DNA of 64,000 nucleotides from an uncultured delta proteobacterium (GCA_963823335.1 CAWGLD010000001.1:1376001-1440000); one strand, 5' to 3'; counted from the stretch's first letter, positions 28,087-43,419 are shown. Translations and numbers: made by a program. Notes: generated by a model not told the origin, from the sequence alone.

Positions 28087-29250
28087 ATGCATCAAGTATT
28101 TCCATTCACGACTCCGCTTATCCAGTTCGGGATGGATACCATCGATACTCTCGGACAGGAAGCAAAGAAGCTGGGGTCAGGGAAAGTGCTGATAGTAACG
28201 GGTCCGTCCGTCGCCAAACACGGCGCTCTCGATCGGGCCATTACCAGCTTAAAGGCCGTATCCATTGAATACGTCGTTGCTATTGTGGAAAGGGATACAC
28301 CCGAACCCGCCACGAGCATTGCCGAGGAAACTGCCAAAAAAATATTAAGCGAGGATGCCAAGGTAATCGTCGGGATTGGCGGCGGGAGTGTTTTAGATGT
28401 TGCCAAGATGAGTTCCGCCCTGGCCGTCAATCTGGGAAAGGTTCGAGACTATTTTGGTAAAGACAAGGTTCCCGAACGCGGCCGGCCCACGATAATGGTC
28501 CCGACCACCTCTGGGACCGGTGCTGAAGTAACCAAACACGCCATTTTCCTGGACAAGGAAAGCGAAGTAAAAAAAGCAGTTGCCTCAAATGCACTTTTGC
28601 CGAATGTGGCCATTGTAGACCCGCTGCTTACAGTAAGTTGTCCGCCATCTGTGACGGCCGCAGCCGGTATTGACGCCTTTATCCATGCGGCCGAATCATA
28701 TCTTTCCAAACTGGCAAACCCACTTACCGGGGCCATGGCCCTGGAGTCGGTCAAGATTATCTACAATAATTTGGGTCCGGTTTATGCCGATGGGGATAAT
28801 CTGGAGGCCCGTTACTGGATGTCCATGGGCAGCATGATGTCCGGCCTGGTTCTGAACAATTCGGGTACCAGTCTCGTCCATGCACTGGCCTATCCCATTG
28901 GTGGGGAACTTCATACGCCGCACGGTCTCAGTCTGACCGCTATCATTCTTTCTTGTTTCGACTATATCTCAATGGCTAAGCTGGATCATTTCGTTCATTT
29001 GGCCGAAGCCATCGGTGAACCGGTGGAAGGATTGTCCAAGCGGGAGATTGTCGCGGTTTTTCTCAATGCCCTGCGTGAATGGATGGTAGAATTGGGCCTG
29101 CCTGTTTGCCTGAGTGACCTGGATATTACTGACAAGGGTAAGGTAGCCCGTTGGGCGATAGAAGGTCATAACGAACAACGACTGCTTTCCCGCTGCGCAC
29201 GGAATCTGACAGTCAAGGACTGCGAAAACATCTATAACAACGCATTCTGA
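28087..29250 (+). CDS. Iron-containing alcohol dehydrogenase
   Basis: GGGSVLD, PTTSGTGAEVT, DAFIHAAE, HALAY and PHG motifs. Confidence 0.93.
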   Translation: MHQVFPFTTPLIQFGMDTIDTLGQEAKKLGSGKVLIVTGPSVAKHGALDRAITSLKAVSIEYVVAIVERDTPEPATSIAEETAKKILSEDAKVIVGIGGGSVLDVAKMSSALAVNLGKVRDYFGKDKVPERGRPTIMVPTTSGTGAEVTKHAIFLDKESEVKKAVASNALLPNVAIVDPLLTVSCPPSVTAAAGIDAFIHAAESYLSKLANPLTGAMALESVKIIYNNLGPVYADGDNLEARYWMSMGSMMSGLVLNNSGTSLVHALAYPIGGELHTPHGLSLTAIILSCFDYISMAKLDHFVHLAEAIGEPVEGLSKREIVAVFLNALREWMVELGLPVCLSDLDITDKGKVARWAIEGHNEQRLLSRCARNLTVKDCENIYNNAF

Positions 29251-29468
29251 TGTTTGTGGTCGACGGCCACCAAATAATCACAGCGCCTTTATCGACAGAA
29301 GACTTCTTCATGGAGTTTCGAAATTGCTGCCTTCTCAATTTTCTCCGATCCCCAGCTTGTCCGGCATTTATTCCTCACAAAAGATTACAGATGTAAATGG
29401 CAAACAAACAATCAAAGGCAGATGTATAAGTGATTTCATAAAATTTTTCTGCGATACGATAAACTTTT

Positions 29469-30482
29469 CTAATCAGAAACCTGCTCCCAATACTTAGGAT
29501 AGATCAGAATCCCATGGGCCATATTTACATTGAGAGTTCTTATTTCTTTTATGTTTAGCGCCTTCATGAACCCTAACACCAAGGTTAGATTGGATACATC
29601 GGTTGCAGCGTAATCACCGCCGATCTCTTCTTCCGATAGCGCTTGCCGGACTGCCAACGTTCTTTCCACATCAGAAATGGTGTAGGTCTTCCCGTCTTTG
29701 ACACTCTGTTTCCGGACACTGTGGTAATGAACGCCACCGATTCCCAGCACCTTCAGATTTCCGGCCTTTGCTTTGATGACATTCGGAACATGAATTTCAG
29801 CATAATCTCGTGCCAGATTTACGGCTTTGGTGGCTACTGCTTTGCCCATGGGATTGGGAGATTTGACATCCCTTGACGATTTTCCTTGAATGTCGGTGAT
29901 GATCGTATTTTTCATGCTCATGGATGCCAATTCCCCTTCATAGACATCGAATGAATTGTTATCCTTGGCGATGACCATCTGCATGCTGCCGCCACCGATA
30001 TCCCAGACCAAACATTCCTTTTTTTCCAAGTCAGTTTGCGGATATGCTGCCAGAAACCCCAGAATGGCTTCGGTTCTTTGAGATATGATCTGTGTACGGA
30101 TTCCAAGTTCTTTCTCGATTCTTTCCGTAAACATTTTCCCATTGTCCGATGTGCGGAAGGCCGAGGTTGCAACCCCCACGAATTGTTCAGTATTATAATT
30201 TTGAGCGATGTTTTTAAATTGCTGGAGAGCCGTTAGACCTTTTCTTTGAATGTCTTCACTGAATTTGCCCTGCGAAATACCAAGGTCCTCTTTATACGCG
30301 ACGTCTATTTCTTCTTCCGCGAGAATTTGTATCACATGTTGTTGGCATGTATCCACTCTCGCCACTACCATTTTTGTTGTGCTGGAGCCGATGTCGAATG
30401 CAGCCCGATTTACAAGACATTCATCAGCAAATACATTCGTTATCGCCAAAAGCATACAAACGATTATTGTTAGGTATCTCAT
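29469..30482 (-). CDS. Secreted Ppx/GppA-like (ASKHA) phosphatase, catalytic domains only
   Basis: Signal peptide (MRYLTIIVCMLLAITNVFA); AAFDIGSSTTK, VATSAFR, ISQRTEA and WDIGGGSMQ motifs; SD AAGGAGG. Confidence 0.8.
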   Translation of the reverse strand: MRYLTIIVCMLLAITNVFADECLVNRAAFDIGSSTTKMVVARVDTCQQHVIQILAEEEIDVAYKEDLGISQGKFSEDIQRKGLTALQQFKNIAQNYNTEQFVGVATSAFRTSDNGKMFTERIEKELGIRTQIISQRTEAILGFLAAYPQTDLEKKECLVWDIGGGSMQMVIAKDNNSFDVYEGELASMSMKNTIITDIQGKSSRDVKSPNPMGKAVATKAVNLARDYAEIHVPNVIKAKAGNLKVLGIGGVHYHSVRKQSVKDGKTYTISDVERTLAVRQALSEEEIGGDYAATDVSNLTLVLGFMKALNIKEIRTLNVNMAHGILIYPKYWEQVSD

Positions 30483-30544
30483 GATTCCTCCTTTCATTTT
30501 TGACGGTTGCCGAAAATGTCGCCTGACAATTTAGTTCAGTAATA

Positions 30545-30572
30545 GGTATCGAAAGCTATTGGTTATTTTTCG
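30545..30572 (-). promoter_or_regulatory. Island alternative-sigma promoter motif, copy A
   Basis: CGAAAAA-N11-TTTCGATACC on the minus strand, about 60 bp upstream of the Ppx-like gene. Confidence 0.6.
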
Positions 30573-30628
30573 GTTTTATTTCATGAGAAATGAAAGTGGA
30601 ATAAATGGCTTAAAGAGAATGGAAAATG

Positions 30629-32830
30629 TCAAAATTCTGCGAGGATTTCCTGGGCAACAGGAGGGAAAAACATGACATGGTGTTGGTCTCCATCAACAAG
30701 AAATATGTCGACAAATCCCGACCTCTCCAGAGCCCTTATCATACTGACCATAATGCAAGGTTGGGTTTCGTCATTCGGCACAATGCCCACATCATTCAAA
30801 TTGGTTAAAATAACAAAGGGTAATTTAATTGATAGAGAGGGGCTAAAGGCTCCGCTGGGCACATTCCCAAAAGTGACTTTTGCTTTACGGGCGGCCTGCT
30901 GCAAAGCGTTTTCATATAAATTTAAACGGAGCGAATCTGAAAAGCTTTTAGGACGATTGTGGGTCTTGCAGGTTCTTGAAAGAATCGAACTTCTCCACGT
31001 TTCGCGAATATTCTTTGCTGGATGATAGTAAATATTTGAGAAAAGTTTATTTGAAGGCGAGAGTAAAAATAAGAAATTCCGCAGCCATGGCTCTTGACTA
31101 AGGGCTTCAGAGAGTCGATTTTTTAATTCATCGGCCTTTTCATCAAATTTAACTGATGTCAGGTCTGCCTGTGTAATCTCTGATCTGTGTATACCCTTTG
31201 AATCTTCACTTTCTAGGAGATGATACATCAACCATTCATGAATTCGCCATTCAATGAGCCGATCCGTACTCAAATAAATCGGCTCCAAATGATGATATTC
31301 ATAGCTTTCGATATTGGTTTGCGCATAGCCTCTGAACCCTTCTCCACGCCCGGCAGCTATCACTGCAACTTTTGGGTTTTCTTCTTTATACGCGCTGAGC
31401 AACTCAAGAAGTTTTTTTGAAGAAGAAGGTGCAACTTCATCCAAGGAGTCAACAATGATAGCGGTAAAATCCATCTTGCTACTGATTTTTATTCTTTCTC
31501 CTTTGATGTCGTAAAAAAAACCATAGCTTATTAATAATTGGCCGAGGGTCTCGGTAGCGCTTTGCTTGGTTTCAAATAGATCTGAATCCAATCTTGGAAG
31601 GCAGCTGATAGCGACACTATTAATTATGAGATCATCCTCCATGGTTGAATGCGGGGAAGGCGTTGGTTCCTGCCTGCATTCAGGATCATCTTTTCGATTT
31701 TGAGCCCGAAAGGATTTGTCGAGATCAAGCATGGCTAATTTGTTGTTATTTGAAGGGCGCTCAGGATCGATTGCCGGACATGCCAACCATTTTAAAAAAG
31801 TAGATTTCCCCGTACCCGGTCCACCGGCGATCAATACAATTTTGTTGTTGGAATTATAGGGGTAAGTCTTTCCGTTTCTAATAGCCTCCGCAATGGTAGC
31901 AAGTGCCGGCTGATTTTTGGTATAGAGGCGGGCAAAATGTATGGGAACACGAACACCGCTGATAGATTTCACGAAAAGCGGTATATCATCGAAGCGCTGT
32001 TTATCGCCAAGGTATGTTAAATACTCCTGTTGCGCTGCTTGATATTGTTCTTTGTAAAGAAACGCATCTGCTTCACACTTGGGTGGGGGCTTCTTATCAA
32101 AAGATGGCTTTATCAGCAAAAAATAGACACCTGTTGACAGGAGGAGGAGAACGATCGCGGTAAAGAATAATTTTATTCGTCTATCGGAAGATTGTATTCT
32201 TTGATCTCCTGAGACATTCTCTGAAGCTGAATGTGTTTCCCCTCGAGCCGCCGGAGTTTTTACAGGAAGTAATTTGTTTATTGCTTCATCCACCGTTAAA
32301 ACCGATATAAGCTCTATTCCTTTTTGTAAGGTGAGAGCCTTTTTATCCGGTTCAATCTCTTCTTCATTCGCGGCCGGATAGAAAAATTTGTCCCCCTGTT
32401 GCAGGCAATCAATAGCGGCATCAAGCTTTTTGTTGATGCCATTAACCCTTCTGACCTTACACCCTGTTTCATCGATCGTGCCGGTTGCAGCAATCGAGCA
32501 TGTAAGGGATTGCCCCGTTTTGGCTCGATAAATCTCCTGGGCGAATTTCAAAGAAAAACCAAGACCCGCACTCGCCCCCAAAACTTTTGTGTTTACATCT
32601 GTATCGTCAAACCGGCACCGAAGATAATAGTCCTCTCTTTCGCCAATATAGTTCAATCTTCTGAGACTCTGGTAAGCACAATGGATCCCCTCGTCAGCAG
32701 AATTGCGAATTTGGGCATCTGATAGACTGGCGGGGAAGTCGATTTTAATGCGACACCCGGGATCGGAATCGTAGAATGAGTAAACTAACCGATTGGACGT
32801 CCCATCATCAAAGAGTGCATAGATATCCAT
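30629..32830 (-). CDS. Fusion of Lon-type (S16) Ser-Lys protease domain + single TM helix + P-loop (STAND/NACHT-like) NTPase
   Basis: GASAGL/IAATGTID/VNGINKKLDAA/YPAAN align by eye with [30 protein letters not shown] of the Lon in this window. TM segment LFFTAIVLLLLSTGVYFLLI; Walker A GGPGTGKST; Walker B IIVDSLDE. Confidence 0.8.
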   Translation of the reverse strand: MDIYALFDDGTSNRLVYSFYDSDPGCRIKIDFPASLSDAQIRNSADEGIHCAYQSLRRLNYIGEREDYYLRCRFDDTDVNTKVLGASAGLGFSLKFAQEIYRAKTGQSLTCSIAATGTIDETGCKVRRVNGINKKLDAAIDCLQQGDKFFYPAANEEEIEPDKKALTLQKGIELISVLTVDEAINKLLPVKTPAARGETHSASENVSGDQRIQSSDRRIKLFFTAIVLLLLSTGVYFLLIKPSFDKKPPPKCEADAFLYKEQYQAAQQEYLTYLGDKQRFDDIPLFVKSISGVRVPIHFARLYTKNQPALATIAEAIRNGKTYPYNSNNKIVLIAGGPGTGKSTFLKWLACPAIDPERPSNNNKLAMLDLDKSFRAQNRKDDPECRQEPTPSPHSTMEDDLIINSVAISCLPRLDSDLFETKQSATETLGQLLISYGFFYDIKGERIKISSKMDFTAIIVDSLDEVAPSSSKKLLELLSAYKEENPKVAVIAAGRGEGFRGYAQTNIESYEYHHLEPIYLSTDRLIEWRIHEWLMYHLLESEDSKGIHRSEITQADLTSVKFDEKADELKNRLSEALSQEPWLRNFLFLLSPSNKLFSNIYYHPAKNIRETWRSSILSRTCKTHNRPKSFSDSLRLNLYENALQQAARKAKVTFGNVPSGAFSPSLSIKLPFVILTNLNDVGIVPNDETQPCIMVSMIRALERSGFVDIFLVDGDQHHVMFFPPVAQEILAEF

Positions 32831-32835
32831 AGGTT

Positions 32836-33378
32836 CTATCTGTCGCCTGGTCGGACTGTTAAACATTTAAGGTTAACTGCATCCAGATTCTCTATCTCCT
32901 GAGAAGCTTTACCATGGAAGATGATACCTTCAAGACAGATAAGGCCCTGCCCATCCAGTAATTGGACGGACTTTCCTTCCAATGTCTTTTGGTAGCCTTT
33001 TCCCACCTCTAACACCACAAGACCCTTATCTGTTTCATGAATATTCCGTCTTATCGTAACCGAATATTTACCTCCCTCAAGTCGAAACTTCTTTGGCCAC
33101 TCTGTTTCTGAGGTAGCTGCCTTGGGCAGCGCAAAATCCCAGGCTTCGGCGTCTTTCCGGCACTCGATTAAATCTTTGATTTCCTGAAGACATGCGGGAC
33201 ACCTTGTCAGGTGGTTCAAGTGCGAGTCTTCCAATTCGATGCCCTGGGGTTGGATCAGCAGCTCATACAGCTCAGCAGAAGGTATATGTTTACCTGCATC
33301 TCCATTCAAACCATAGGCTTGCCATGTTTCTAAAGCTTCTTTAAGGGTAATTCGTTTATTCATATTTGTGTCTTTCAT
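32836..33378 (-). CDS. Zinc-finger (ZAS-type) anti-sigma-like protein with soluble C-terminal beta-rich domain
   Basis: HIPSAELYEL...HLTRCPACLQEI (H...HxxxCxxC), directly downstream of a sigma factor; no TM helix. Confidence 0.75.
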   Translation of the reverse strand: MKDTNMNKRITLKEALETWQAYGLNGDAGKHIPSAELYELLIQPQGIELEDSHLNHLTRCPACLQEIKDLIECRKDAEAWDFALPKAATSETEWPKKFRLEGGKYSVTIRRNIHETDKGLVVLEVGKGYQKTLEGKSVQLLDGQGLICLEGIIFHGKASQEIENLDAVNLKCLTVRPGDR

Positions 33379-33412
33379 TACAAGTTTAATTACAATGTAC
33401 CATTTAATCTGT

Positions 33413-34177
33413 TTAATCTGAAAAAATTTCTATAATGTCCGTTACACACCATCCTTTGCCTTCAAGGCAGTACTTCATCTTTCCCCTGGCTTTTATTTCG
33501 AGTCTGTGGACCTTATTAATGTCTATGGTAAGAATCTGAGCTGTCTTTTTAAGCGTTAACTCTCCTAAAGATCTTAATGACAAAACGGCTCTTTCATAAT
33601 GCTTAAGGGCATTTTTTAAACATTCATCCACGTCCTTCCAAAGTTCCCTTTTTGCTATTTCCGTTTGGGGGTCAGGGTTTTCAAAAGCGGGAAGCTCCTG
33701 TGTAAAATTCAATGGCCTCTTTTCGCCGGGTGGATATTTTGCCTCGAGGGAAAAACCAATTTTTTTAAGTCCCTGCAGTCTTCGCAATTCATTTTCCGAG
33801 ACATCCAAAGCCTCTGACAATTCAAAAGTCGAAGGTTTCCTATTTAAAGATTGAATTAACAATTTTTCAGCCTGATCTAACGCTTTTACAGCTGCCCTGT
33901 TTTTTTGGGTCAAGGGATCTTGTTTTCGTAGATAATCTTTAATAGCCCCATCAATGTAGAGACTGGAAAAGGTAGAAAAGGAAACACCTCTTCTGGGATC
34001 ATATTTGTTAGCCGCTTTTACCAAACCGATAAACCCTTCTTGAATAAGATCATTCAAATCGATTTTATTCCTGGCCGCTTCTGGAAAGTTATTATATAAT
34101 TTCTTGGCCTTATAGACAGCCAGTCCGTAGTAATCATCCAAATCAATGATTTGTGAAGAGGTCATGTGTCTTTTCAT
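33413..34177 (-). CDS. Sigma70-family alternative sigma factor, FliA/WhiG (group 3)-like
   Basis: Region 2 DLIQEGFIGLVKAANKYDPRRGVSFSTF...IDGAIKDYLR, region 3 LNRKPSTFELSEAL, region 4 HTH LTLKKTAQIL...VHRLE. Confidence 0.9.
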   Translation of the reverse strand: MKRHMTSSQIIDLDDYYGLAVYKAKKLYNNFPEAARNKIDLNDLIQEGFIGLVKAANKYDPRRGVSFSTFSSLYIDGAIKDYLRKQDPLTQKNRAAVKALDQAEKLLIQSLNRKPSTFELSEALDVSENELRRLQGLKKIGFSLEAKYPPGEKRPLNFTQELPAFENPDPQTEIAKRELWKDVDECLKNALKHYERAVLSLRSLGELTLKKTAQILTIDINKVHRLEIKARGKMKYCLEGKGWCVTDIIEIFSD

Positions 34178-34190
34178 CCTACATATTGAT

Positions 34191-34219
34191 GTTATCGAAC
34201 GGATTCAAAAAATTTATCA
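34191..34219 (-). promoter_or_regulatory. Island alternative-sigma promoter motif, copy B (autoregulatory)
   Basis: TGATAAA-N12-GTTCGATAAC on the minus strand, immediately upstream of the sigma gene. Confidence 0.65.
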
Positions 34220-34624
34220 GTTTTCATAAAAAAATACTTGAAAGAGTTTTTTTGATGCCTTCCCATGGATTTTCTTGTTTAAATAAATCGTGTTCTTTTC
34301 AGACTATTGGTATTGGGTCTTTTTGCGCTGCTACATGTCAGCTGAACGGGAATGCCTGGATAAGAAGAAGGTGTATTTCCAATGTTAGGGGAGCAACACA
34401 ATTATTACCTTATCATGCTTTATGCGTGCAACAACAGTCATTAAGGTACAGATAGTGTCTATTGTGTAGTTAAGATGTAACCTATTGTCAATATTAAAAT
34501 AAATTAGAAATGCCGCCAAAGACCCTCGTTATGTTCCCAAGATTCACGTTGTTACCGGCCCCTTAATTCAGATAGCCGCTATTAGGAAATAGTCCCATCT
34601 TATCGTTTATATTTAAGGCGGCAG

Positions 34625-34652
34625 TGAAAAAACAAGAAACTGGTTCGATAAC
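34625..34652 (+). promoter_or_regulatory. Island alternative-sigma promoter motif, copy C
   Basis: TGAAAAA-N11-GTTCGATAAC, about 90 bp upstream of the divergent operon. Confidence 0.7.
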
Positions 34653-34738
34653 CATACCTGAAGAAACGCATTGCCTGAAAGTTCATCCTGACAAATTTTC
34701 TGAAAAATTAAGGCACAGTTGATCGAGGAAAAATTTAG

Positions 34739-35618
34739 ATGAACAGCTTATTAGACGAAACTGCCATCAGAAAGAAGCTGCGATTAGATGCGCTTCAACA
34801 TCCCATGACGATTCTTCCCGCAGCTTTCTGCATTTTGTGGATCATCTATTGGGTGTTGTTAGAAGATATTATTGGCGGAGCTGGATACATCCTCATAATC
34901 ATTTTATCTTCAGCAGTGGTTGCTGCAGGCTCCTTCCTCTGGCTCTACTTTCATTCAATATGAAGATGCATATGCAAAAAGAATTAGCGAAATTGCTTAT
35001 CTCCAGGATCAGATTCAAACAGAGAAAAATGATGCAGATATTAAGCACTTGATCGTGGCTGTTCGTACCGGATTCAAAAATACGAATACAACAGATGGCC
35101 TCAATGCATTGACCGATTTGGTTCACGAATATCAAAAGATTCTCCAGGTTGTCGAATATAAGAAAGAAATCGATCCACTGGCACTCATTCATATTCCAGC
35201 CCTGGTAGAAGAGACATTCTTGCAAGGATTGAGTGTTCTCTCAGACGTCTTAGAGCTATCAAAAATTATACATAAACCTGACATAGATAATCTTGAAAAG
35301 AAATTAAAAGCCACTGAGAACGAAATCAAGTCATCGCGCCAGCATAAAGCTAAATCGGCACTTCTTAGAATTAAAATGGCCAGGGCCGACTCATATAAAG
35401 AAAGGTTGGATATGATAAATCAGCAGGTGTTGCGACATGACACCTTGCTTTACCAATGCACGAGTTGTGAAGCATCACTACATAAAACCCGTGTCGAGTT
35501 GACCGCACTTAAAACAGAGAATTCGGATACGAGCATAAATGAAGTAACCGAAACGCTTCGGCTGACTATCAAACAGGCACAGGAAATTCAGGAAGAGCTC
35601 AAGAGGCTTAGCCTCTGA
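34739..35618 (+). pseudogene. Two-TM + coiled-coil membrane protein (XpaC-like position before vWA/TelA), +1 frameshift near 34949
   Basis: ORFs 34739-34963 (2 TMs) and 34920-35618 (helical) join as LYFIQYE if one T is removed from CTCTACTTTCATTCAA. Confidence 0.7.
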
Positions 35619-35675
35619 CATGAGCCTCGTATTCTTTAAACAGGGGAATATATCAATCATGAAAGGAGGTGTACC

Positions 35676-37517
35676 GTGAAACGACTTACCAGAGCGATCA
35701 TTTTGGTACTTATTTTTGCGACGATTGGAGGGATTCTATTTCGTTTCCTCTGGCCTGGCGGGGAGCGCCTTACTATTGTTCACTGGACTACCGGTCACCT
35801 GATGCGAACCGGTTTGTTGCCGGAAATGGCTGCCGAGTTCAACCGAACTGTCCACAGAACACGTTCCGGTAAACGGATAGAGATCAAGGTTATCTACTAC
35901 GGTTCATCGGAGCAGGCAGAAGACCTGCTCTCTCGGGTAACTCGCGGCGTGCCTGTCGACCGAAACCGTCCAAATCCAACGATCGTCACACCGTCGGCAG
36001 CTCACTGGCTTGTGCCGGTCAATCATGCGGCTGGCCGCACCATCGTAGACCTCAAAACCGCTAAAAGCATCGCGCGGGCATTTATTGGCATCGTAACTTA
36101 TCAGGAAATGGCGGAATGCCTGGGATGGCCAGATAAAAAGATCGGTTATGCTGATATCGTAGCTCTGCGAAACGATCCACTCGGCTGGGCCGGTTATCCC
36201 TGTGCCAAGGCCGAATGGGGGCAACGCCCGCTCGTTGCCTACACCGATCCCATTACTTCAAGCACAGGTCGCAGCGTTTTGTTTACCCTGTACGCCATCG
36301 CCGCTGGAAAAGCTCCAGATCAACTGACCGTTTCCGATGTCAGAGATCCTAAGGTGGTTGACTACGTCAAACAATTCCAGAAACTGGTAGATCACTATAT
36401 GATCGGCACGACAGTATTGAATACAAAGATTCATCAGGGCCCTCGTTTTGGCCACTTCTTTCTCATGCCCGAGGACAACCTTATCCACCTGTATGAGGGG
36501 ACCGAACGCGCCTTCATCAATGGCGTAAAAGTGAGTGCTCCGCCCATCGAACAGCCGATGGTCATGATGTACCCGAAAGAGGGATCTATGGCGCGGAACA
36601 ATTGCGCCGGTATCGTTCAGGCATCCTGGGTGACTGAGGATCACGGGGAAGCAGCACATAAATGGGTTGACTTCCTCCGCGAAGATGACCAGCAGCGTGC
36701 CTTTATGAAGGCAGGTTTTCGGCCAGCGACGAATCTTCCCCTTTCGAGAACCATTAGCGGAAAATATGGATTGGATCCGACCCAACCGACCATTGAGTTC
36801 AATCCTGCGCTGATTGACCCTAAAGTTGCAGCTGCGATTGATGACGCCTGGGAAGACGTAAAAAGGCCTGCCATCGTAACATTCGCCATGGATACATCTG
36901 CTTCCATGCAAGGAGATAAGCTTACGCAAGCAAAAGATGGCATGATCCGGGCCCTGGACAGCATGGCAAAGAATAACCAAATAGGTTTCATTTGCTTCGA
37001 TTCGGAAGTTACCACTCGTATCCCAGTAGGTCAGCTTCAGAGGAACCGTTTCACGATTGCAAATACCTTAAAGGGGTTGCAGGCGCAAGGCGGAACGGCA
37101 CTCTACGACGCGATTAAAACGGCGGTCGAGATAACAGATGGAGCGCCCGGAGATGAAAATGCCATTCGTGCCGTGGTCGTCCTGACGGATGGTCAGGCAA
37201 ATCGAGGTGCGACTGCGTTACACGACCTCATACAGCTGATGTCTAATAGCGAGATCCCTATCCAGGAATTCAGAGGCTTTCAAGAGGATCAAACAGCTAT
37301 AGATGAACAGGGAAGACCCGTTAACAGGAAAAAAATTATCGGTACGACTTTGAGCATGGAAACCAACCACTCGGTCCAGATCTTCTTCATCGGGATCGGT
37401 GAAGATGCAGACATGGAGGTTGGCCGAATGCTGGCTGAGGCAACAGGTGCAGAATTCCAGGGAACGACCCAAAAGGATTTGGCTGGAGTACTCGAAGAAT
37501 TCAGTAAATATTTTTAA
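35676..37517 (+). CDS. Membrane-anchored solute-binding-protein + von Willebrand A domain protein
   Basis: N-terminal TM, SBP-type DPITSSTG/YPKEG/GFRP motifs, and vWA MIDAS DTSASM...GGTALYDA...VLTDG. Confidence 0.88.
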   Translation: MKRLTRAIILVLIFATIGGILFRFLWPGGERLTIVHWTTGHLMRTGLLPEMAAEFNRTVHRTRSGKRIEIKVIYYGSSEQAEDLLSRVTRGVPVDRNRPNPTIVTPSAAHWLVPVNHAAGRTIVDLKTAKSIARAFIGIVTYQEMAECLGWPDKKIGYADIVALRNDPLGWAGYPCAKAEWGQRPLVAYTDPITSSTGRSVLFTLYAIAAGKAPDQLTVSDVRDPKVVDYVKQFQKLVDHYMIGTTVLNTKIHQGPRFGHFFLMPEDNLIHLYEGTERAFINGVKVSAPPIEQPMVMMYPKEGSMARNNCAGIVQASWVTEDHGEAAHKWVDFLREDDQQRAFMKAGFRPATNLPLSRTISGKYGLDPTQPTIEFNPALIDPKVAAAIDDAWEDVKRPAIVTFAMDTSASMQGDKLTQAKDGMIRALDSMAKNNQIGFICFDSEVTTRIPVGQLQRNRFTIANTLKGLQAQGGTALYDAIKTAVEITDGAPGDENAIRAVVVLTDGQANRGATALHDLIQLMSNSEIPIQEFRGFQEDQTAIDEQGRPVNRKKIIGTTLSMETNHSVQIFFIGIGEDADMEVGRMLAEATGAEFQGTTQKDLAGVLEEFSKYF

Positions 37518-37590
37518 GAAAAGTAAGAAAACAGCATTGTTCCAAAAGGAGTTGTCGATAAGAAAATATCATAAATAGGAGGCAAGTAGC

Positions 37591-38760
37591 ATGGTTGCAA
37601 AAAAACAACACAACCGAAAAACATTGGATTCACTTTCTGTTTTGCCGGCTTTTGATGATCTATATGATGCAGATGGAAAGCCTCAGTCGGGATCCCAGAG
37701 ATTTGTCAAGGACATGGTGAAAGAACTCGAAGATGAATCAAAAGTGCTTGTCGCGCAATTGCGAGAAGCGAGCGGCAGCCACGAGCTTAAACTGATCGAC
37801 AGAATTGTTAGTATTGGTCTTAAAGCACAGAGAACTGCCGGGGCTGATTTGGATCTTTTACGGACGCGTATTCGGGATATGCTTACACAGGGGAAAACAT
37901 CCGATAAACTTTCAAACGAGCTTATTGGATTACGTATGGCGCTCAACGCGATAAATCCGCATGAGCTAATTAGAAATAATTTTGCTTCCAAATTGCTGAG
38001 CAAGTTTCCTTTCTTCAAGGTGTTGGATCCCGGTATAAAGGCGCTTAAAAAGATGGCAATCCGGTATGAATCGGTGTCCAATCAGGTTTGGATAATTGAA
38101 AAAAAGCTGCGTGAAGGACGGCTGATGCTTACCAGGGATAATCTTGAATTGAGAAAGCTTTATGAACAGATTGAAGAAAAACAGTCGCCTGTACAGAAAA
38201 ATGCATACCTTGGTGAATGTATTGTACAGCAACTGAGGGATGTTATCGAGCACACACAAGATCCGATGAAAAGGAACAGGCTGCAGAATGCCATGCATGA
38301 CGTGTCCATGAGGGTTCAAGACTTACGCACAATGGAGGAAATTTTTCTCCAATTTTTTGTCAGTATCGATTTGACCCGACAAAACAACTCAAGATTGGGC
38401 CAGGCTGTGGAACGAACACTAACACTTGCTACCAATCTCGTGGCAGTCGGCCTCGCAATCCAAACCGCTCTTTTCCGGCAAAAAAGAGTCATAGATGCCA
38501 CCCAGAAGACGCGGGAGTTTTTAGGAAATTTAATTGTCGCAAATGCCGCAACGATTAAACAGCATACCACCGATATTGGCGATGTTTACAATCAACCGGC
38601 AATAGCAGTTGAAAAAGTTACCAAAGCACATAGCGAAATTGTCGAAGCCCTGGAAATTGCAATTCAGCTTAAGCAGAAAGGCATCGATAATGCCCAAGAA
38701 AACATTGGGAAACTAACAAAAATGTCATCCGAACTTCAGAAGAGGATTGGCGTGCGGTGA
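37591..38760 (+). CDS. telA: Toxic anion resistance protein TelA family
   Basis: All-helical ~390-aa protein with RYESVSNQV..IEKKL..G...L.RDN..L and ALFRQK.V..A...T..F...LI..NA..IK TelA-like pattern. Confidence 0.82.
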   Translation: MVAKKQHNRKTLDSLSVLPAFDDLYDADGKPQSGSQRFVKDMVKELEDESKVLVAQLREASGSHELKLIDRIVSIGLKAQRTAGADLDLLRTRIRDMLTQGKTSDKLSNELIGLRMALNAINPHELIRNNFASKLLSKFPFFKVLDPGIKALKKMAIRYESVSNQVWIIEKKLREGRLMLTRDNLELRKLYEQIEEKQSPVQKNAYLGECIVQQLRDVIEHTQDPMKRNRLQNAMHDVSMRVQDLRTMEEIFLQFFVSIDLTRQNNSRLGQAVERTLTLATNLVAVGLAIQTALFRQKRVIDATQKTREFLGNLIVANAATIKQHTTDIGDVYNQPAIAVEKVTKAHSEIVEALEIAIQLKQKGIDNAQENIGKLTKMSSELQKRIGVR

Positions 38761-38785
38761 AAAAACAGACAAACGGTTCGATAAC
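38758..38785 (+). promoter_or_regulatory. Island alternative-sigma promoter motif, copy D
   Basis: TGAAAAA-N11-GTTCGATAAC whose first three bases are the telA stop codon; about 60 bp upstream of 38846. Confidence 0.7.
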
Positions 38786-38845
38786 AATAAATGAAAAGGA
38801 GAATGGAATAATCATGAGAACAGTATTGCAGGGAAAGGAGAGAAA

Positions 38846-39166
38846 ATGGTCCACAATGTCAACTCTGCCGGTATGATTATGGCCATGCATCTGGTGGCAA
38901 GTTTTCTGCTGCAGGCGTTCGCAGCCCTTTATGGCCTCATTGCAACCAAGGAATTGATGGGAGGTATGGTGGGTTTTTTCGCAGGGGGTTTGATAATGAG
39001 AGGTCTTTTCCGGAATTTGATCCCTACGAAATGTCCAAATCCAGCTTGCGGCGCCTTTACGGCTTACCAAAGCGGCTCCCAGCCGCTCACGTATGTATGC
39101 AGAACGTGCGGTCATGAGCATGTCACCACCATTTCTGAAGGAGGCAGTGAAAATTTTCACTTCTAG
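38846..39166 (+). CDS. Small two-TM protein with C-terminal Zn-ribbon
   Basis: Two hydrophobic segments followed by CPNPAC...CRTC; SD AAGGAG. Confidence 0.65.
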   Translation: MVHNVNSAGMIMAMHLVASFLLQAFAALYGLIATKELMGGMVGFFAGGLIMRGLFRNLIPTKCPNPACGAFTAYQSGSQPLTYVCRTCGHEHVTTISEGGSENFHF

Positions 39167-39575
39167 ATTTGGCTCATCTATATTTGTCGGCGTATTGCTT
39201 ATAACAATTTCAGCCATAGCTCTTTGTTCAGACCTTCCAACCAATCATTAATGGCAGGAATTTCTAATTTAAATATTGCCTGAAAGACTGCCTGCTGCGG
39301 AGGCAGGTGGTCGCTTGGGCATCAAAATAGCAACTATCTGAAATACTGGCCAATATATTATTATGCCAATAAATTCTATCGAAACAGTAAAAATTCATTT
39401 TTAATATTTCCAGTAGGTTAGAGAAGGAGAAAAATTGTCGAAAAGGAGAGAGGGGTACCTATTGGGTGCCCACCGGCATTATGGCATGGAAAATAGCATT
39501 CATCATAAAACTATCTGAAATAAATCCTTTTAGCGTTATTTCCTCAATTTTTTCTGTTAAAAAAATTATTGTCAA

Positions 39576-39638
39576 TGAGTCAATTATAGTCTATTATCGA
39601 CTCAAAATCTGAGCTGATAAAAGGAGCGAAATGACTCA
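39576..39638. promoter_or_regulatory. Tandem 29-bp inverted-repeat operators upstream of the Fic gene
   Basis: TGAGTC-N17-GACTCA (39576-39604) and TGAGCT-N17-GACTCA (39610-39638, covering the SD and ATG). Confidence 0.6.
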
Positions 39639-40776
39639 AACAATACAATACATTTGGCAGCAGCCGTCATGGCCGGAATTTTGTTGGGACAATGCAGCCC
39701 TTCTCAAGCAAATAGGTATTTGTCGATTCCAGCAGGGTTCTTTGTTGACTCAAATGAAGGATTTGGGGTTCGATGTCAGCCAGCAGGCCAGAGCCGAAGT
39801 GTTGATCGAAGAAGCCCTCAAAACGTCCGAAATTGAAGGCGAACACCTGGATCCCAAGGCCGTTCGATCTTCAGTGGCCCAACGTCTTGGTTTGCCGACA
39901 GCCGGTATGGCCTCGATAAAAAATCAGCAGGCCGACGGGGTCGTTCAAATTTTGCTGGATGCTACGCAGGACTTTAAACAGACGCTGACTCCTGAACGGC
40001 TGTTCGGTTGGCATGCAGCTCTATTTCCCACTGGTTATTCAGGAATGCATAAGATTAAAGTTGCATCCTGGCGCGATGATCGCAATGGGCCGATGAAGGT
40101 TGTATCGGGTCCTATTGGACGGGAACAAACCCATTATGAAGCGCCACCTGCAGAGCGTTTAGCAAACGAAATGAACCGCTTTTTCTGCTGGTGGGAGGAA
40201 AGTCGTAAAGAAATGGACGGCCTCCTTCGGGCCGGCATGGCTCATCTGTGGTTTGTGGCGGTGCATCCTTTTGAGGATGGTAACGGACGAGTTGCCCGGG
40301 CGTTGACAGAGATGGCCCTGGCTCAGGATGAAAATCTGTCGACACGATATTATAGCCTCTCTTCACAGGTCATGGCAGAAAGAGAGGACTATTATAAGAT
40401 TCTCGACCGTACCAACAAGGGAGAAGGGGATATAACCGATTGGATGAAATGGTTTCTGGAATGCATGTCCAGAGCTATCCTAAGCTCAAACAGACGCCTG
40501 TCCAATGTGATGTTAAAGGCCAGGTTCTGGAGGTATTACGCGCAGACCAAGCTAAAAGAACGTCAGAGCAAAGTCATCAATCGCTTACTCGATGCTGGCC
40601 CCGGCGGTTTTGAGGGGGGTCTGACAAATCGAAAATATGCCGGCATGACCCATGTCAGCAGGGCAACGGCTCAAAGAGAATTGGCAGACCTTGTTCAAAA
40701 GGGCATTCTTCGTCCCAATCCAGGTGGTGGTAGGAGTACAAGCTATGACCTTTGTTGGGATGAGTTTTCAGATTGA
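39631..40776 (+). CDS. Fic family protein (DUF4172-Fic-HTH)
   Basis: YIWQQPSWP N-terminus, TSEIEGE, intact HPFEDGNGRVAR motif, C-terminal HTH (SRATAQRELADLV, GGGRSTSY). Confidence 0.93.
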   Translation: MTQTIQYIWQQPSWPEFCWDNAALLKQIGICRFQQGSLLTQMKDLGFDVSQQARAEVLIEEALKTSEIEGEHLDPKAVRSSVAQRLGLPTAGMASIKNQQADGVVQILLDATQDFKQTLTPERLFGWHAALFPTGYSGMHKIKVASWRDDRNGPMKVVSGPIGREQTHYEAPPAERLANEMNRFFCWWEESRKEMDGLLRAGMAHLWFVAVHPFEDGNGRVARALTEMALAQDENLSTRYYSLSSQVMAEREDYYKILDRTNKGEGDITDWMKWFLECMSRAILSSNRRLSNVMLKARFWRYYAQTKLKERQSKVINRLLDAGPGGFEGGLTNRKYAGMTHVSRATAQRELADLVQKGILRPNPGGGRSTSYDLCWDEFSD

Positions 40777-40814
40777 GCCGGCACAACAATAGTATCATTT
40801 GAAAATGTTACCTC

Positions 40815-40907
40815 ACATTGCCTTGGACCGTTTAATAGCAATCCGCGCCTTTCTAACATCAGCTGTTTAATGACCGCCTTCTGCCATCTTGGGTAAGGTT
40901 CTATCAT
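40815..40907 (-). pseudogene. N-terminal remnant of a COG1373/DUF4143-type AAA+ ATPase
   Basis: Manual translation MIEPYPRWQKAVIKQLMLERRGLLLNGPRQC, broken inside the Walker A motif. Confidence 0.65.
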
Positions 40908-40924
40908 TTCGGAATTTTCTGTCT

Positions 40925-41000
40925 CCGCGATATGATGATTATTTGTATCGCTATTTTTATATTTTAAATACCGCGATTATACAATTTTTATTGCCGCGAT
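40925..41000. repeat. Four direct repeats with exact 23-bp period (probable operator array)
   Basis: CCGCGAT at 40925, 40971 and 40994, plus degenerate TCGCTAT at 40948. Confidence 0.65.
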
Positions 41001-41140
41001 TTTAGCATTTTTTCTAAGATCAGCCAATAGTGGCATTATATCTTAAAAATTGTTTTAGGGGATCGATAGGGCCGTAGGAAAGATAATATGCAAATGTTAG
41101 GGGAATATTGCCTATAATATCAATAAGAACAAGGAATCTT

Positions 41141-42997
41141 TTATTTCAAATGCTCTTCCGTATATAAGGTTAGCTCGATCATCCGCTCAAGAAGTTCATC
41201 CACCTGCATTCCCGGAAAATTGTGACGAACTAACTCTTTGCAAAATAGGCTGCTAATATAACGGAGCTTTCGTCGTTTCTGCTTTCCAGCATAGACAAAG
41301 TCCCTATGACCGTTATTTACAATAATAACGTTTTTGTCCACATCGAATCGTGAGCGCCACATTTCACCCGCTGCACGACGATAGGTATACCCTGGCAGTC
41401 CTTTATTTTTCTTTCCGGATTTTGATGATTGGTCCAAAAGTGAATCGGTGATGGTTATCAGGGCTTCATCGGTGCACGTGGTATCAGACTGATGAACTGT
41501 GACTTTTAACGTGGTCAGGCAGGGTTCCGCGGGGGCAACAAAGATGACCGATTCATTGCTGTTCTCAATAAGTTGGCCTTCTCCTTCCACTACCTCCCAT
41601 AGATATTTCAGATTTTCCAAAACGATCCTTCGAGACCGGTCTCTGCAAACGACCCTATATTTTTTGCGATTGTCAACCGAAACAACACTTGATTTTGGAG
41701 AAATCAGCGTACTGAACAGAGGACCGGCATATTCAAAAAATTGTTTTTTGGTGCTGTCATTGTCACCCGGTTCAAGTACATCTTCAGAATTTTTATTTCC
41801 ACGGTTGTTATCTTCTCGGGGGTCTCCAGATATTGGCCCACTGGTAAAAAGATTTCCCGGCATTTTTTGAGGCTTTCCCGCATGAATGTCAAACCAGTCG
41901 TATTCCTCTTGTGGCAACCGTAAAAACGCTTCTTTGAGAGCACGCTGTACCCTGCGTAAAATTCGGCGACTTGATCTCTCCTCTTCGGCTTTACGCTGGT
42001 CTTCGATAATCTGCTGCAGATGACTTTCGACGGATTCCATCGCACGGTAAAAAGCATCAAAACGGTCATCGCGTAATACTCCCTGACGTGTCCCCGGAGT
42101 GAGATTTAAAAACGGCGCATCCACAATGCCTTGCAGGTACCCAGCCGTCCAAGGCTCTTTTTGAATGTGTTCGAGTTCAGTAATTGACGGTAGTACCCGC
42201 GTACCGCGACGATACAACCCAATACGGTTTGAGGAGCCCGGATCGCTGAGGTAAAGCTCCAGATAGATATCACCGTACACCGTCTCGGCCGGCTTCAAAT
42301 TATGGAGCAGTCGTCCGCTAAATTGACGTGGGACAACGATAAGTTCCTTTCTACCTGTATGATCAACAATCTTTACCGTCACTTCAGTTGATTTTATGCG
42401 ATCACGAAGTTCGGATGCGAGATACCGCTGAATCTTTTCACCGGTCAAAGACCGCAATCCAGGAAGTAGCGGATAGATCGTCAGGTCTGTTCCCTTAGAG
42501 GGGAGCAATACCCGTTTTTTTGTGACGGTAAAATTAGGTGAGTCTTTAGCCATCATCATTTCGTAGGTTTTTCCATCAGCACCACAACTGGTCATTCTTA
42601 GGTTCTGGCCGACCGTCCAAAAACTTAGAAGACCTATGCCGAATTCTCCCTGAATTCCTGCCGCTCTTTCCGACTTGAACTGTCTCTTGATAGAATCACA
42701 AATATGGGTTGCCACACGCCGGAAATCGGGAAGCCCTTGTGCATTTCTTGGAATTCCCTCCCCATCGTCACTGACCTTGATATAGAATTCACCCTTTTTT
42801 TTCCCTCTTACAATGACGATCTGTTTTGCGCCTGCGTCAATGCTGTTTTCCACAAATTCGGCCACAGCTTTCAGAGGGTTGGCTTGAGATTTGGCGATGA
42901 TGCTGATGGCATTCCAATGATCGGCGATGCGCAACTTTCCAGTACGGATACCTTTTTTTATCTTTTTACGTACGGATTTTGACATTGTTGACTCCAT
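41141..42997 (-). CDS. GHKL (HSP90/MORC-like) ATPase-domain protein
   Basis: EFVENSIDAGA, DDGEGI, GEFGIGL and GT Bergerat-fold motifs; uncharacterised C-terminal region. Confidence 0.82.
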   Translation of the reverse strand: MESTMSKSVRKKIKKGIRTGKLRIADHWNAISIIAKSQANPLKAVAEFVENSIDAGAKQIVIVRGKKKGEFYIKVSDDGEGIPRNAQGLPDFRRVATHICDSIKRQFKSERAAGIQGEFGIGLLSFWTVGQNLRMTSCGADGKTYEMMMAKDSPNFTVTKKRVLLPSKGTDLTIYPLLPGLRSLTGEKIQRYLASELRDRIKSTEVTVKIVDHTGRKELIVVPRQFSGRLLHNLKPAETVYGDIYLELYLSDPGSSNRIGLYRRGTRVLPSITELEHIQKEPWTAGYLQGIVDAPFLNLTPGTRQGVLRDDRFDAFYRAMESVESHLQQIIEDQRKAEEERSSRRILRRVQRALKEAFLRLPQEEYDWFDIHAGKPQKMPGNLFTSGPISGDPREDNNRGNKNSEDVLEPGDNDSTKKQFFEYAGPLFSTLISPKSSVVSVDNRKKYRVVCRDRSRRIVLENLKYLWEVVEGEGQLIENSNESVIFVAPAEPCLTTLKVTVHQSDTTCTDEALITITDSLLDQSSKSGKKNKGLPGYTYRRAAGEMWRSRFDVDKNVIIVNNGHRDFVYAGKQKRRKLRYISSLFCKELVRHNFPGMQVDELLERMIELTLYTEEHLK

Positions 42998-43170
42998 TTA
43001 GCCAATGGTTCGGCTTAAGTTGAAGAAGAAAATCATCAACTGGACAACAAAGAATTCCATCAACCATCAGTTTCTCTGTTCCTCGATATAACAATATCGC
43101 ACTCGCTTCTGGGTAATCGAGCTGAAACGTTTTGAGTGATCTAAGGCTTTTAGCCAAGGCGAAGTTCGAA
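42966..43170 (-). pseudogene. C-terminal remnant of a COG1373/DUF4143-type ATPase
   Basis: LRSLKTFQLDYPEASAILLYRGTEKLMVDGILCCPVDDFL resembles the C-terminus of this family; no upstream domains. Confidence 0.6.
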
Positions 43171-43260
43171 ACATTTGGTTGTATGTCATAATTTAGCCCG
43201 GCTTCGCATGAATGCTTCACCGTGGCAGTCTTCGGTCTTCACTACGTTTCGAACGAAGAC

Positions 43261-43337
43261 TGGTCGGGGCGGTAGGATTTGAACCTACGACTTCCTGCTC
43301 CCAAAGCAGGCGCGCTGCCAGGCTGCGCCACGCCCCG
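43261..43337 (-). tRNA. tRNA-Pro(TGG)
   Basis: CGGGGCG acceptor stem, anticodon arm CCTGC-TT TGG GA-GCAGG, GTTCAAATC T-loop, encoded CCA. Confidence 0.97.
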
Positions 43338-43419
43338 ACGTATTTGTCGAAACCGCTATTTGGTAGGTTGGGCGAAAATAGGGTTTGCTAATTAACACGC
43401 TTTTACCTGCTACGCAAGG

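Follow-up and report, generated by a model that had tools for sequence, protein, structure and literature searches.

Introduction

Two forms of protease-gated sigma switch are known. In one, membrane proteases cut an anti-sigma factor that itself lies in the membrane; in the second, the parts are soluble and linked to CRISPR, as in CalpL and Craspase. According to the description of the CalpL/CalpT/CalpS system, CalpT consists of a MazF-like part and DUF2080, CalpS resembles the extracytoplasmic function (ECF) sigma factors, and CCaCalpL cleaves CalpT inside the sequence LAAA, between A204 and A205 (bioRxiv 10.1101/2024.05.08.593097). Here we report on a locus at positions 29469-39166 of a stretch of 64,000 nucleotides (nt) from an uncultured delta proteobacterium (GCA_963823335.1 CAWGLD010000001.1:1376001-1440000), the whole of which we call the window. 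At its core is a trio of tightly packed genes at 30629-34177 on the minus strand, which encode, in this order, a sigma factor, a zinc-motif protein of 180 amino acids (aa) and a Lon-like protein with a transmembrane (TM) helix. We consider, with moderate confidence, that this trio is a self-contained protease-gated sigma switch.

A preliminary description of the window had proposed a cascade from a membrane-bound Lon-type protease through a zinc anti-sigma factor to a sigma factor, and every gene was found where it had been placed (Table 1). The organism's own assembly, G000, comprises 4.37 Mb and is 93.9% complete. The stretch recurs in sediment and salt-marsh metagenomes from several studies.

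Conservation of the trio

A synteny survey, named beforehand as a check, bears out the idea of a conserved three-gene cassette. The survey covered the 13 Lon-like matches, other than that of the window, with readable upstream DNA. A homologue of the 180-aa gene lies directly upstream of the Lon-like gene in 11 of these loci, and in 9 of the 13 (L003, L012, L013, L015, L019, L032, L033, L034 and L035) a sigma gene lies upstream of that homologue in the same order and on the same strand; four of the cassette genomes belong to one family, so these counts do not represent independent events. Two loci (L016 and L017) are truncated at contig ends. The loci with the trio span two phyla. The protease carries DUF4384 in L019, L033, L034 and L035, in the last at E 0.0019, which is under the Pfam cut-off. 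As the order of the trio is kept while the C-terminal domains differ, the trio is, judged from these sequences, a conserved unit whose sensor module is exchangeable.

The complete protein of the window is rare. Its 745-aa gene is absent from the 40 relatives searched (1 of 41 genomes, that of G000 only), a whole-protein scan of genome contigs found no relative, and the protein in its entirety was matched by 12 proteins in 5.8 billion. With the Lon-like head as a profile, 8 of 401 genomes of the phylum gave a match, as did one further genome-contig record; in the phylum of that record, 5 of 167 genomes then matched. A metagenome scan returned no more than two short contigs, both from a close relative, and one of them adds a locus. 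The loci of the relatives are flanked by housekeeping or envelope genes. We note that the Lon-like gene of L032 (G490:C122, 181-1518) has one in-frame TGA and is read as two open reading frames (ORFs), owing to a sequencing error or because the copy is broken.

Sigma factor and anti-sigma candidate

The sigma factor matches the Pfam families Sigma70_r2 (5.7e-15), r3 (3.8e-05) and r4 (8e-06). The best NCBIfam model is FliA_WhiG (TIGR02479), with 121.8 bits, and its curated cut-off of 189.6 is not reached; the protein thus belongs to group 3, FliA-like but under the FliA/WhiG cut-off, much as the preliminary description had it. Its likely start is the second ATG (M5, at 34165), the position at which the relatives begin.

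The 180-aa protein is free of hydrophobic segments and contains HLTRCPACL, an instance of HxxxCxxC, so that the soluble HxxxCxxC protein described earlier is indeed present; the full ligand pattern is H-x24-HxxxCxxC. In ChrR the upstream histidine likewise lies about 25 residues ahead of HxxxCxxC. The family is small, with 19 proteins found by a word-indexed search. Seven residues do not vary among 15 sequences from two phyla, namely H31, H56, C60, C63, A87, A88 and G103; besides the metal ligands and G103, the pair A87-A88 is all that is invariant. The AlphaFold2 (AF2) model (pLDDT 76.3) has helices at residues 12-89 and a confident beta domain at 96-177, and between these two confident parts residues 83-91 fall below a pLDDT of 50. 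In the ESM Atlas the third neighbour of the protein (score 0.88) contains zf-HC2 in 15% of its members, which is a lead only.

A model of the complex of the sigma factor with the 180-aa protein gave an ipSAE of 0.70 (median of three runs) versus 0.26 for the best of three controls; the mark set for this score is attained by 58 of 80 solved complexes and by 2 of 110 mismatched pairs. At least 38% of the contacts are common to the runs, and the pLDDT of the partner is at least 69. The modelled interface brings residues 7-81 of the anti-sigma candidate together with residues 15-25/42-72 (region 2) and 176-248 (region 4) of the sigma factor, leaving the linker and the beta domain free of sigma. 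The model thus supports a helical domain lying between regions 2 and 4 of the sigma factor and agrees, as a prediction only, with the binding of sigma by the zinc-motif protein that had been proposed. Two cysteines of the sigma factor, C186 and C237, flank region 4 and are invariant across six aligned cassette sigmas; both are in or beside the modelled interface.

The linker ALPKAATSE is a likely site of cleavage by the protease, because A87-A88 is invariant and the linker is predicted to be flexible and lies outside the modelled interface. In other subfamilies of the anti-sigma candidate the linker reads LEAAA(T/S) or RKAAA(S/T/G).

The Lon-like protein and its protease domain

The single 745-aa sequence has weak matches only, to SepM S16 (NCBIfam, 6.3e-4) and to P-loop families, and nothing was found with it in the PDB. 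A search of 1.84 billion representatives returned 275 matches at E ≤ 0.001, 87 at 1e-10 and 21 at 1e-30; among the 150 matches listed, most cover residues 13-200 only. These residues define the Lon-like family, which was aligned as 79 sequences (the domain of the window and 78 relatives). Ser-99 and three other columns are invariant and Lys-147 is kept in at least 90% of the members. In the PDB the profile of the 79 sequences matched Lon protease domains, LonB (1z0b) best at 1.9e-11, with GaSAG aligned on GDSAS and the lysine on the catalytic lysine. CalpL is not among the 29 PDB sequences that the profile matched at E ≤ 1.

Membership of the Lon (S16) class is indicated by the Ser-Lys dyad, which is present in the SAG...K motifs of the family profile. 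The N-terminal AAA+ unfoldase of the LonA/LonB type is absent: the protease starts at residue 13, and the sole P-loop, a STAND-like one, comes after the TM helix. The C-terminal modules of the 79 members comprise DUF4384 (41), nSTAND1 (9, often with WD40), PD40 (6) and WD40 (4), and the Pfam family Lon_C is recognisable in 7. With such varied C-terminal modules on one N-terminal domain, the common head is, from its sequence profile, an ATPase-less Lon-like Ser/Lys protease. The Lon-type protease, TM helix and P-loop NTPase of the preliminary description are therefore all recovered in one protein. Its likely start is M13 at 32830, giving 733 aa, since the relatives begin MDIY; this start leaves a gap of 5 nt to the upstream gene, matching L003.

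Exactly one TM helix follows the Lon-like domain in 69 of 78 family members. Lys and Arg are more abundant on the N-terminal side of the helix in 61 of the 73 members with a TM helix, equal in 8 and less abundant in 4, an excess which predicts that the Lon-like domain is cytoplasmic, alongside the soluble anti-sigma candidate, and that the C-terminal module is outside. Such a location is unremarkable for DUF4384 and PD40. In the nSTAND1 members the order is reversed, with the TM helix (about aa 655-700) behind the NTPase, so those NTPases are predicted to be cytoplasmic.

The STAND-like module

The C-terminal module of the window protein contains the conserved motifs GGPGTGKS (Walker A), IIVDSLDE (Walker B) and GRGE. 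Its AF2 model (pLDDT 88.5, pTM 0.89) displays the STAND core of nucleotide-binding domain (NBD), helical and winged-helix (WH) parts together with Walker A and B. When the module was aligned with 48,161 chains by VIA-align, NLRC4 came first (Z 12.6, root-mean-square deviation 4.1, 286 residues aligned), next the archaeal ATPases 2qen (Z 12.1) and 2fna (Z 11.4), and at lower ranks TIR-NLR, Cdc6/ORC (about 9.8), TnsC and Avs5, at Z 9-10. The score of Cdc6/ORC makes the margin of a STAND-like fold over AAA+ initiator-type folds modest. Foldseek gave weak matches with TM-scores of at most 0.37, the Pfam STAND models match only under their cut-offs, and the neighbours in the ESM Atlas are NACHT/nSTAND clusters (0.94-0.97). 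We therefore describe the module, by that modest margin, as a probable STAND-like NTPase. Neither a C-terminal repeat nor another sensor is present, the protein ending in the AF2 model after the WH-like/beta part.

The preliminary description had included the NTPase in the system, of which it is not a constant part. DUF4384 occupies the position in 41 of the 79 family members, and among 401 genomes of the phylum only that of G000 itself yielded the NTPase module (three candidates were scored per genome). As a TM helix with DUF4384 is usual among the relatives, the NTPase appears to be a rare substitute for the usual sensor. A few relatives consisting of a TM helix and the NTPase stand alone: P0014, P0049, P0054, P0064, P0080, P0099, P0116 and P0154 have 450-540 aa and lack a protease, and seven of these eight start with a hydrophobic helix, mostly after an N-terminus rich in Lys/Arg, P0064 being the exception. 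The N-terminal flank is richer in Lys/Arg in 4 of 8 fused NTPase forms (equal in 3, poorer in 1) and in 5 of 7 of the stand-alone relatives (equal in 1, poorer in 1), P0064 having no segment above the threshold.

A shared promoter-like motif

The 10-mer GTTCGATAAC occurs 10 times in the genome versus 6 for the reversed control. Three of the 10 copies lie within 4.6 kb at the locus, all of them intergenic and pointing at gene starts. A composite pattern, GA[AT]AAA-N11-14-TTCGATA[AC]C, has five matches in the genome; four of them are at the locus, where each precedes a start in the correct orientation. In 20 first-order Markov genomes its mean was 0.15 and its maximum 1, and the reversed pattern has no match. 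The promoter-like motif noted earlier at four starts thus stands. In a related strain both differences within the motif ahead of the divergent operon (34633 and 34638) are in the spacer. The -10-like element, TCGATAA, resembles the sigma-28 consensus, GCCGATAA, a likeness that fits a FliA-like sigma factor.

Related elements at the loci of the relatives give the motif support that does not depend on the sites of the window. At L003, L012, L013 and L015, TTCGATA precedes the sigma gene by 20-35 nt; the last three of these loci carry a divergent second copy, of the form TTGAAA-N14-TTCGATAA. In the other phylum GAAAAA-N13-TACAATAA precedes the sigma gene in L019, L032 and L033, with a second copy in L033. 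A scan for sigma-70-type promoters was at chance (18 found versus 19.1 in shuffles).

Two further observations concern the motif. The fifth composite match in the genome is at C3:83628-83653 (+), and the next ORF on the plus strand (cut-off at least 80 aa) lies about 465 nt past it and encodes 233 aa, membrane-protein-like. In one family the divergent motif-bearing operon is syntenic (L012 10212-16062, L013 562-6328, L015 4572-7137); its products are three membrane proteins, one of them with a weak MotA/ExbB-like match (E 5.8e-4, under the Pfam cut-off), two secreted proteins and one that resembles a lipoprotein, and an SLT transglycosylase gene comes after it in L012.

Proposed mechanism and its alternatives

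The mechanism that we propose is as follows. The helical zinc-motif domain of the anti-sigma candidate would keep the sigma factor inactive, while the membrane-anchored protein holds its Lon-like Ser/Lys domain in the cytoplasm. The module past the TM helix, DUF4384 in most relatives and the STAND-like NTPase here, would take a cue and drive self-association. The protease domains would then cleave the anti-sigma at the invariant Ala-Ala of the linker, and the inhibitory fragment would be lost or degraded. The freed sigma would read promoters of the form GAAAAA-N12-TTCGATAAC; the predicted targets are its own operon, giving positive feedback, the divergent operon, the TM/Zn-ribbon gene and the secreted Ppx-like gene. 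As these targets encode envelope proteins, the output would be envelope-directed. What computation gives is the linkage of the genes, the Ser-Lys dyad, the interface modelled between sigma and anti-sigma, and the motif common to the four starts; the cleavage and where it happens, the role of oligomerisation, the cue and the reading of the motif by this sigma are inferred.

Several points weigh against this mechanism. Support for it is computational throughout, and the RNA-library contigs over the locus cannot reveal transcription: those of X16, which span parts of the locus, come from an oligo-dT primed library that may hold DNA, and are uninformative on transcription, starts and strand. The partner genes are lacking at two loci whose Lon-like match is weaker: L014, with a protein of 777 aa (E 3.6e-12), and L018, where the match is an AAA-type Lon (E 6.7e-8). 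The 180-aa protein has no match at E ≤ 0.1 in Pfam, zf-HC2 included, nor in NCBIfam; its family profile has no sequence match in the PDB below E 1.2, and Foldseek with its AF2 model found no fold match at E ≤ 0.001. The ipSAE of 0.70 may echo a resemblance to sigma/anti-sigma complexes of solved structure, and it was obtained with self-built alignments. The four sites counted with the composite motif are those from which it had been drawn up, and the clustering of the exact 10-mer is hence the cleaner statistic. The shared motif was not seen ahead of the sigma gene at L034 or L035, and the target genes vary between relatives. The TM flanks of the window protein itself tie, with 4 and 4 Lys/Arg. 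Lastly, a charge bias that speaks for a protease inside the cytoplasm speaks equally for an NTPase outside it, yet Walker A, Walker B and GRGE are conserved as they would be in a functional NTPase. Three readings of the topology remain: the module is extracytoplasmic, the helix is not membrane-spanning, or the charge rule fails here.

The sigma factor and the zinc-motif protein could instead form a redox or metal switch of the ZAS type, as in RsrA or ChrR, that works without proteolysis, the Lon-like protein being a co-expressed output such as an envelope quality-control or peptide-processing protease. The invariance of the H-x24-HxxxCxxC ligand set speaks for such a switch, as do the weak SepM match of the protease domain, its best single-sequence match in NCBIfam and one to a pheromone-processing S16 protease, and the place of the protease gene as the last of an autoregulated operon. 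A switch of this kind would, however, have no need for an invariant Ala-Ala in a disordered linker; moreover, the strict linkage of the trio survives changes of the C-terminal domain, and the charge bias puts the protease on the side of the soluble anti-sigma. We regard this explanation as unlikely, though deserving of serious attention.

The protease-gated switch may also be given a more specific form. The STAND-like module would be an extracytoplasmic receptor whose ligand, released for example by damaged neighbours, is an extracellular nucleotide or resembles polyphosphate; the oligomerisation that this ligand drives would be passed through the single TM helix to the cytoplasmic Lon-like domains, which would cut the anti-sigma, and the secreted Ppx/GppA-like enzyme would destroy the signal and so reset the switch, like the ring nucleases of CalpL. 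The window variant poses a puzzle, a STAND-like NTPase with intact nucleotide motifs that is predicted on the outer side of the membrane; if the more specific form is true, this NTPase would be the first extracytoplasmic STAND-type receptor. We think that form very unlikely to be correct as a whole.

Neighbouring genes and genomic context

The features of the locus and of its surroundings are collected in Table 1. The Ppx-like protein scores 108.8 bits with TIGR03706, versus a cut-off of 307; the likely start of its gene is at 30482, after GGAGG. Between the 745-aa gene and the ORF as given in Table 1 lie 131 nt. In L002 a Ppx-like gene is absent downstream of the close relative.

Table 1 Features of the locus and its surroundings, in window coordinates
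Feature	Position	Strand	Basis or remark
Ppx/GppA-family protein, signal-peptide-like N-terminus, 342 aa	29469-30497	(-)	Pfam Ppx-GppA 2.6e-27
Promoter-like motif GAAAAA-N12-TTCGATACC	30545-30571	(-)	upstream of Ppx-like gene
Lon-like protease - TM - STAND-like NTPase, 745 aa	30629-32866	(-)	domain evidence in the following rows and in the text
Probable STAND-like P-loop NTPase (NBD, helical, WH-like parts), aa 258-745	30632-32095	(-)	AF2, VIA-align, motifs
Hydrophobic helix, aa 234-252	32111-32167	(-)	Kyte-Doolittle; sole segment above threshold
ATPase-less Lon (S16)-like protease domain, aa 13-200	32267-32830	(-)	dyad S99/K147 (numbered from M1)
ZAS-like anti-sigma candidate, soluble, 180 aa (helical N-domain aa 12-82, beta domain aa 96-177)	32836-33378	(-)	invariant ligands, AF2 model, complex model
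Linker ALPKAATSE of the anti-sigma candidate, aa 83-91	33106-33132	(-)	invariant A87-A88; low pLDDT; candidate cleavage site
Sigma factor, group 3, FliA/WhiG-like	33413-34177	(-)	254 aa; Pfam regions 2/3/4
Promoter-like motif GATAAA-N13-TTCGATAAC	34191-34218	(-)	upstream of sigma gene
Promoter-like motif GAAAAA-N12-TTCGATAAC	34626-34652	(+)	upstream of divergent operon
2-TM + coiled-coil protein	34739-35618	(+)	two frames in window, 34739-34963 and 34920-35618; 292 aa in relatives
Membrane-anchored solute-binding-protein (SBP) domain + vWA	35676-37517	(+)	Pfam VWA_2 8.4e-16, SBP_bac_8 2.3e-08
TelA-family protein	37591-38760	(+)	Pfam TelA 3.3e-40
Promoter-like motif	38759-38785	(+)	upstream of TM/Zn-ribbon gene
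2-TM protein, C-terminal CxxC...CxxC ribbon	38846-39166	(+)	sequence; weak zinc-ribbon matches
Fic/DOC	39631-40776		far end of possible island
HATPase_c_3 protein, 618 aa	41141-42997		far end of possible island
tRNA-Pro	43261-43337		far end of possible island

On the divergent side, the gene for the 2-TM/coiled-coil protein is split in the window. The contigs of three runs (X2, X5 and X16) have one base fewer at 34946/34948, which would restore the open 292-aa frame, and that of X1 does not cover the position; the split is accordingly an assembly error or a strain-specific change. Among the flanking genes given in the preliminary description, those for the Ppx-like, SBP-vWA, TelA and Zn-ribbon proteins are present as described, and only the membrane gene needs correcting, to one 292-aa gene in relatives that is split here. 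The contigs of X1 and X2 are short of 4 bases at 39160, just ahead of the stop of the TM/Zn-ribbon ORF, and the C-terminus of that protein may therefore differ from the reading of the window.

Of 401 genomes of the phylum, G000 alone yielded the 2-TM/coiled-coil protein. TelA at E ≤ 1e-20 is present in 4 of 41 relatives and in none of the 14 genomes of the same family, and a closer TelA homologue, in G033, has different neighbours. Homologues of the Ppx, 2-TM/coiled-coil, SBP-vWA, TelA and Zn-ribbon proteins were not found by phmmer at the loci of the relatives, so the flanking genes, which had been presented as a regulon belonging to the cassette, are not conserved with it there. The locus is accessory. 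Its GC content is 0.41-0.43 at 30-36 kb of the window. It is flanked by an Fe-ADH gene on one side and by Fic, HATPase_c_3 and tRNA-Pro on the other. We note a possible genomic island at about 29300-43340 of the window; the genes of the locus were not found in relatives of the same family, and no integrase was seen. Rfam gave no match at gathering score in window positions 29000-40000, no repeats were found in the intergenic segment 34150-34760, and a terminator scan was at chance (11 found versus 9.8 in shuffles).

This context bears on a role in conflict with phages or other invaders, for which the STAND-like NTPase would sense the invader and the Lon-like protease would be a toxic or signalling effector like that of protease-STAND proteins, the sigma and anti-sigma merely setting expression. 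The fold of the NTPase is nearest to the STAND modules of NLRC4, TIR-NLR and Avs in VIA-align and the Atlas, nSTAND1 with its frequent WD40 recurs in the Lon-like family, the locus is accessory, with the 745-aa gene in 0 of 40 relatives and TelA missing from the same family, and Fic and HATPase_c_3 genes and tRNA-Pro are nearby. PADLOC, however, matched the P-loop to mad8 (1.3e-3) and sigma region 2 to MzaA and returned no system-level match; a C-terminal repeat sensor is lacking; DUF4384, not the NTPase, is found in most cassette relatives; the motif-bearing genes encode envelope or secreted proteins; and the NTPase follows the TM helix, on the side predicted to be non-cytoplasmic. We give such a role little credence, and the defence regulon of the preliminary description finds no backing in the PADLOC result or in the envelope proteins encoded by the motif-bearing genes. 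A flagellar or developmental sigma-28 (FliA/WhiG) with a FlgM-like inhibitor is scarcely credible: FliA_WhiG is the best NCBIfam model and TCGATAA resembles the sigma-28 consensus, but the score stays under the cut-off, the locus has no flagellar genes, the inhibitor bears a zinc motif and a beta domain, and the cassette is missing from the close relatives searched.

Comparison with known systems

We return to the reading of the trio as a protease-gated sigma switch, which has parallels in several known systems. With CalpL/CalpT/CalpS it shares an ATPase-less Lon-type Ser/Lys protease fused to a sensor and a soluble anti-sigma encoded beside its sigma; in that system the known cut, in CCaCalpT, falls within an Ala-rich sequence, and CalpL is activated by sensor-driven oligomerisation (bioRxiv 10.1101/2024.05.08.593097). 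The protease of the window differs in having no SAVED domain (no Pfam match) and in being membrane-anchored, its C-terminal part consisting of a TM helix and a P-loop NTPase. Its family profile reaches LonB and, at E ≤ 1, not CalpL. The anti-sigma candidate is ZAS-like, and the sigma factor has region 3 and is FliA-like, not ECF-like. No source of cyclic oligoadenylate was found at the window genome, where the Cas10 models TIGR02577 and TIGR02578 have no match above cut-off, in keeping with the independence from CRISPR that had been claimed. On every feature tested, namely sensor, anti-sigma family, sigma group and CRISPR link, the locus falls outside CalpL/CalpT/CalpS. The earlier notion of an analogue of that system therefore holds for the logic and not for the component families, given the MazF-like and DUF2080 parts of CalpT and the ECF-like CalpS.

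The ZAS pairs ChrR-sigmaE, RsrA-sigmaR and RslA-SigL resemble the window pair in the HxxxCxxC motif with an upstream histidine and in a helical domain that is, here by modelling, between sigma regions 2 and 4; ChrR also has a separate C-terminal domain. Unlike these pairs, the anti-sigma candidate has no match to zf-HC2 in Pfam or to a PDB sequence, its partner is a group-3 sigma and not an ECF sigma, and it stands apart by its constant linkage to a Lon-like protease and by the invariant Ala-Ala of its linker. DegS/RseP-RseA-sigmaE, RsiW and RsiV likewise carry an envelope signal to transcription through cleavage of an anti-sigma. Their anti-sigma factors, however, span the membrane and are cut by site-1 and site-2 proteases, whereas here the protease is predicted to span it and the anti-sigma is soluble. 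In the type III-E Craspase (Csx29-Csx30-RpoE) a protease cleaves a sigma-binding protein within a linker, as we propose here; that protease is RNA-guided and caspase-like, and the window has no CRISPR context. STAND NTPases with an N-terminal protease (nSTAND1, NACHT, Avs) share the NBD-helical-WH fold, and an N-terminal Lon-like domain occurs in the 9 nSTAND1 members of the family alignment; the window protein differs from these in having no repeat sensor and in the TM helix between protease and NTPase.

A combination of sigma factor, zinc-motif protein and Lon-like protease was not described in the literature searched, subscription journals and supplements being outside its coverage, and in the main text of Kaur et al. 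2020 (PMC7159879) the terms 'Lon', 'sigma factor', 'DUF4384' and 'anti-sigma' are not mentioned. The cassette is thus apparently unstudied, as the preliminary description had supposed. Three predictions can be tested: the cleavage site, the dyad, which can be mutated, and the promoter motif, which can serve as a reporter. Set beside the known switches, the cassette would invert the classical layout, with the protease as the transmembrane receptor and the anti-sigma as the soluble partner. With its exchangeable sensor modules and its occurrence in two phyla or more, it would offer a compact route from envelope to transcription through a single receptor.

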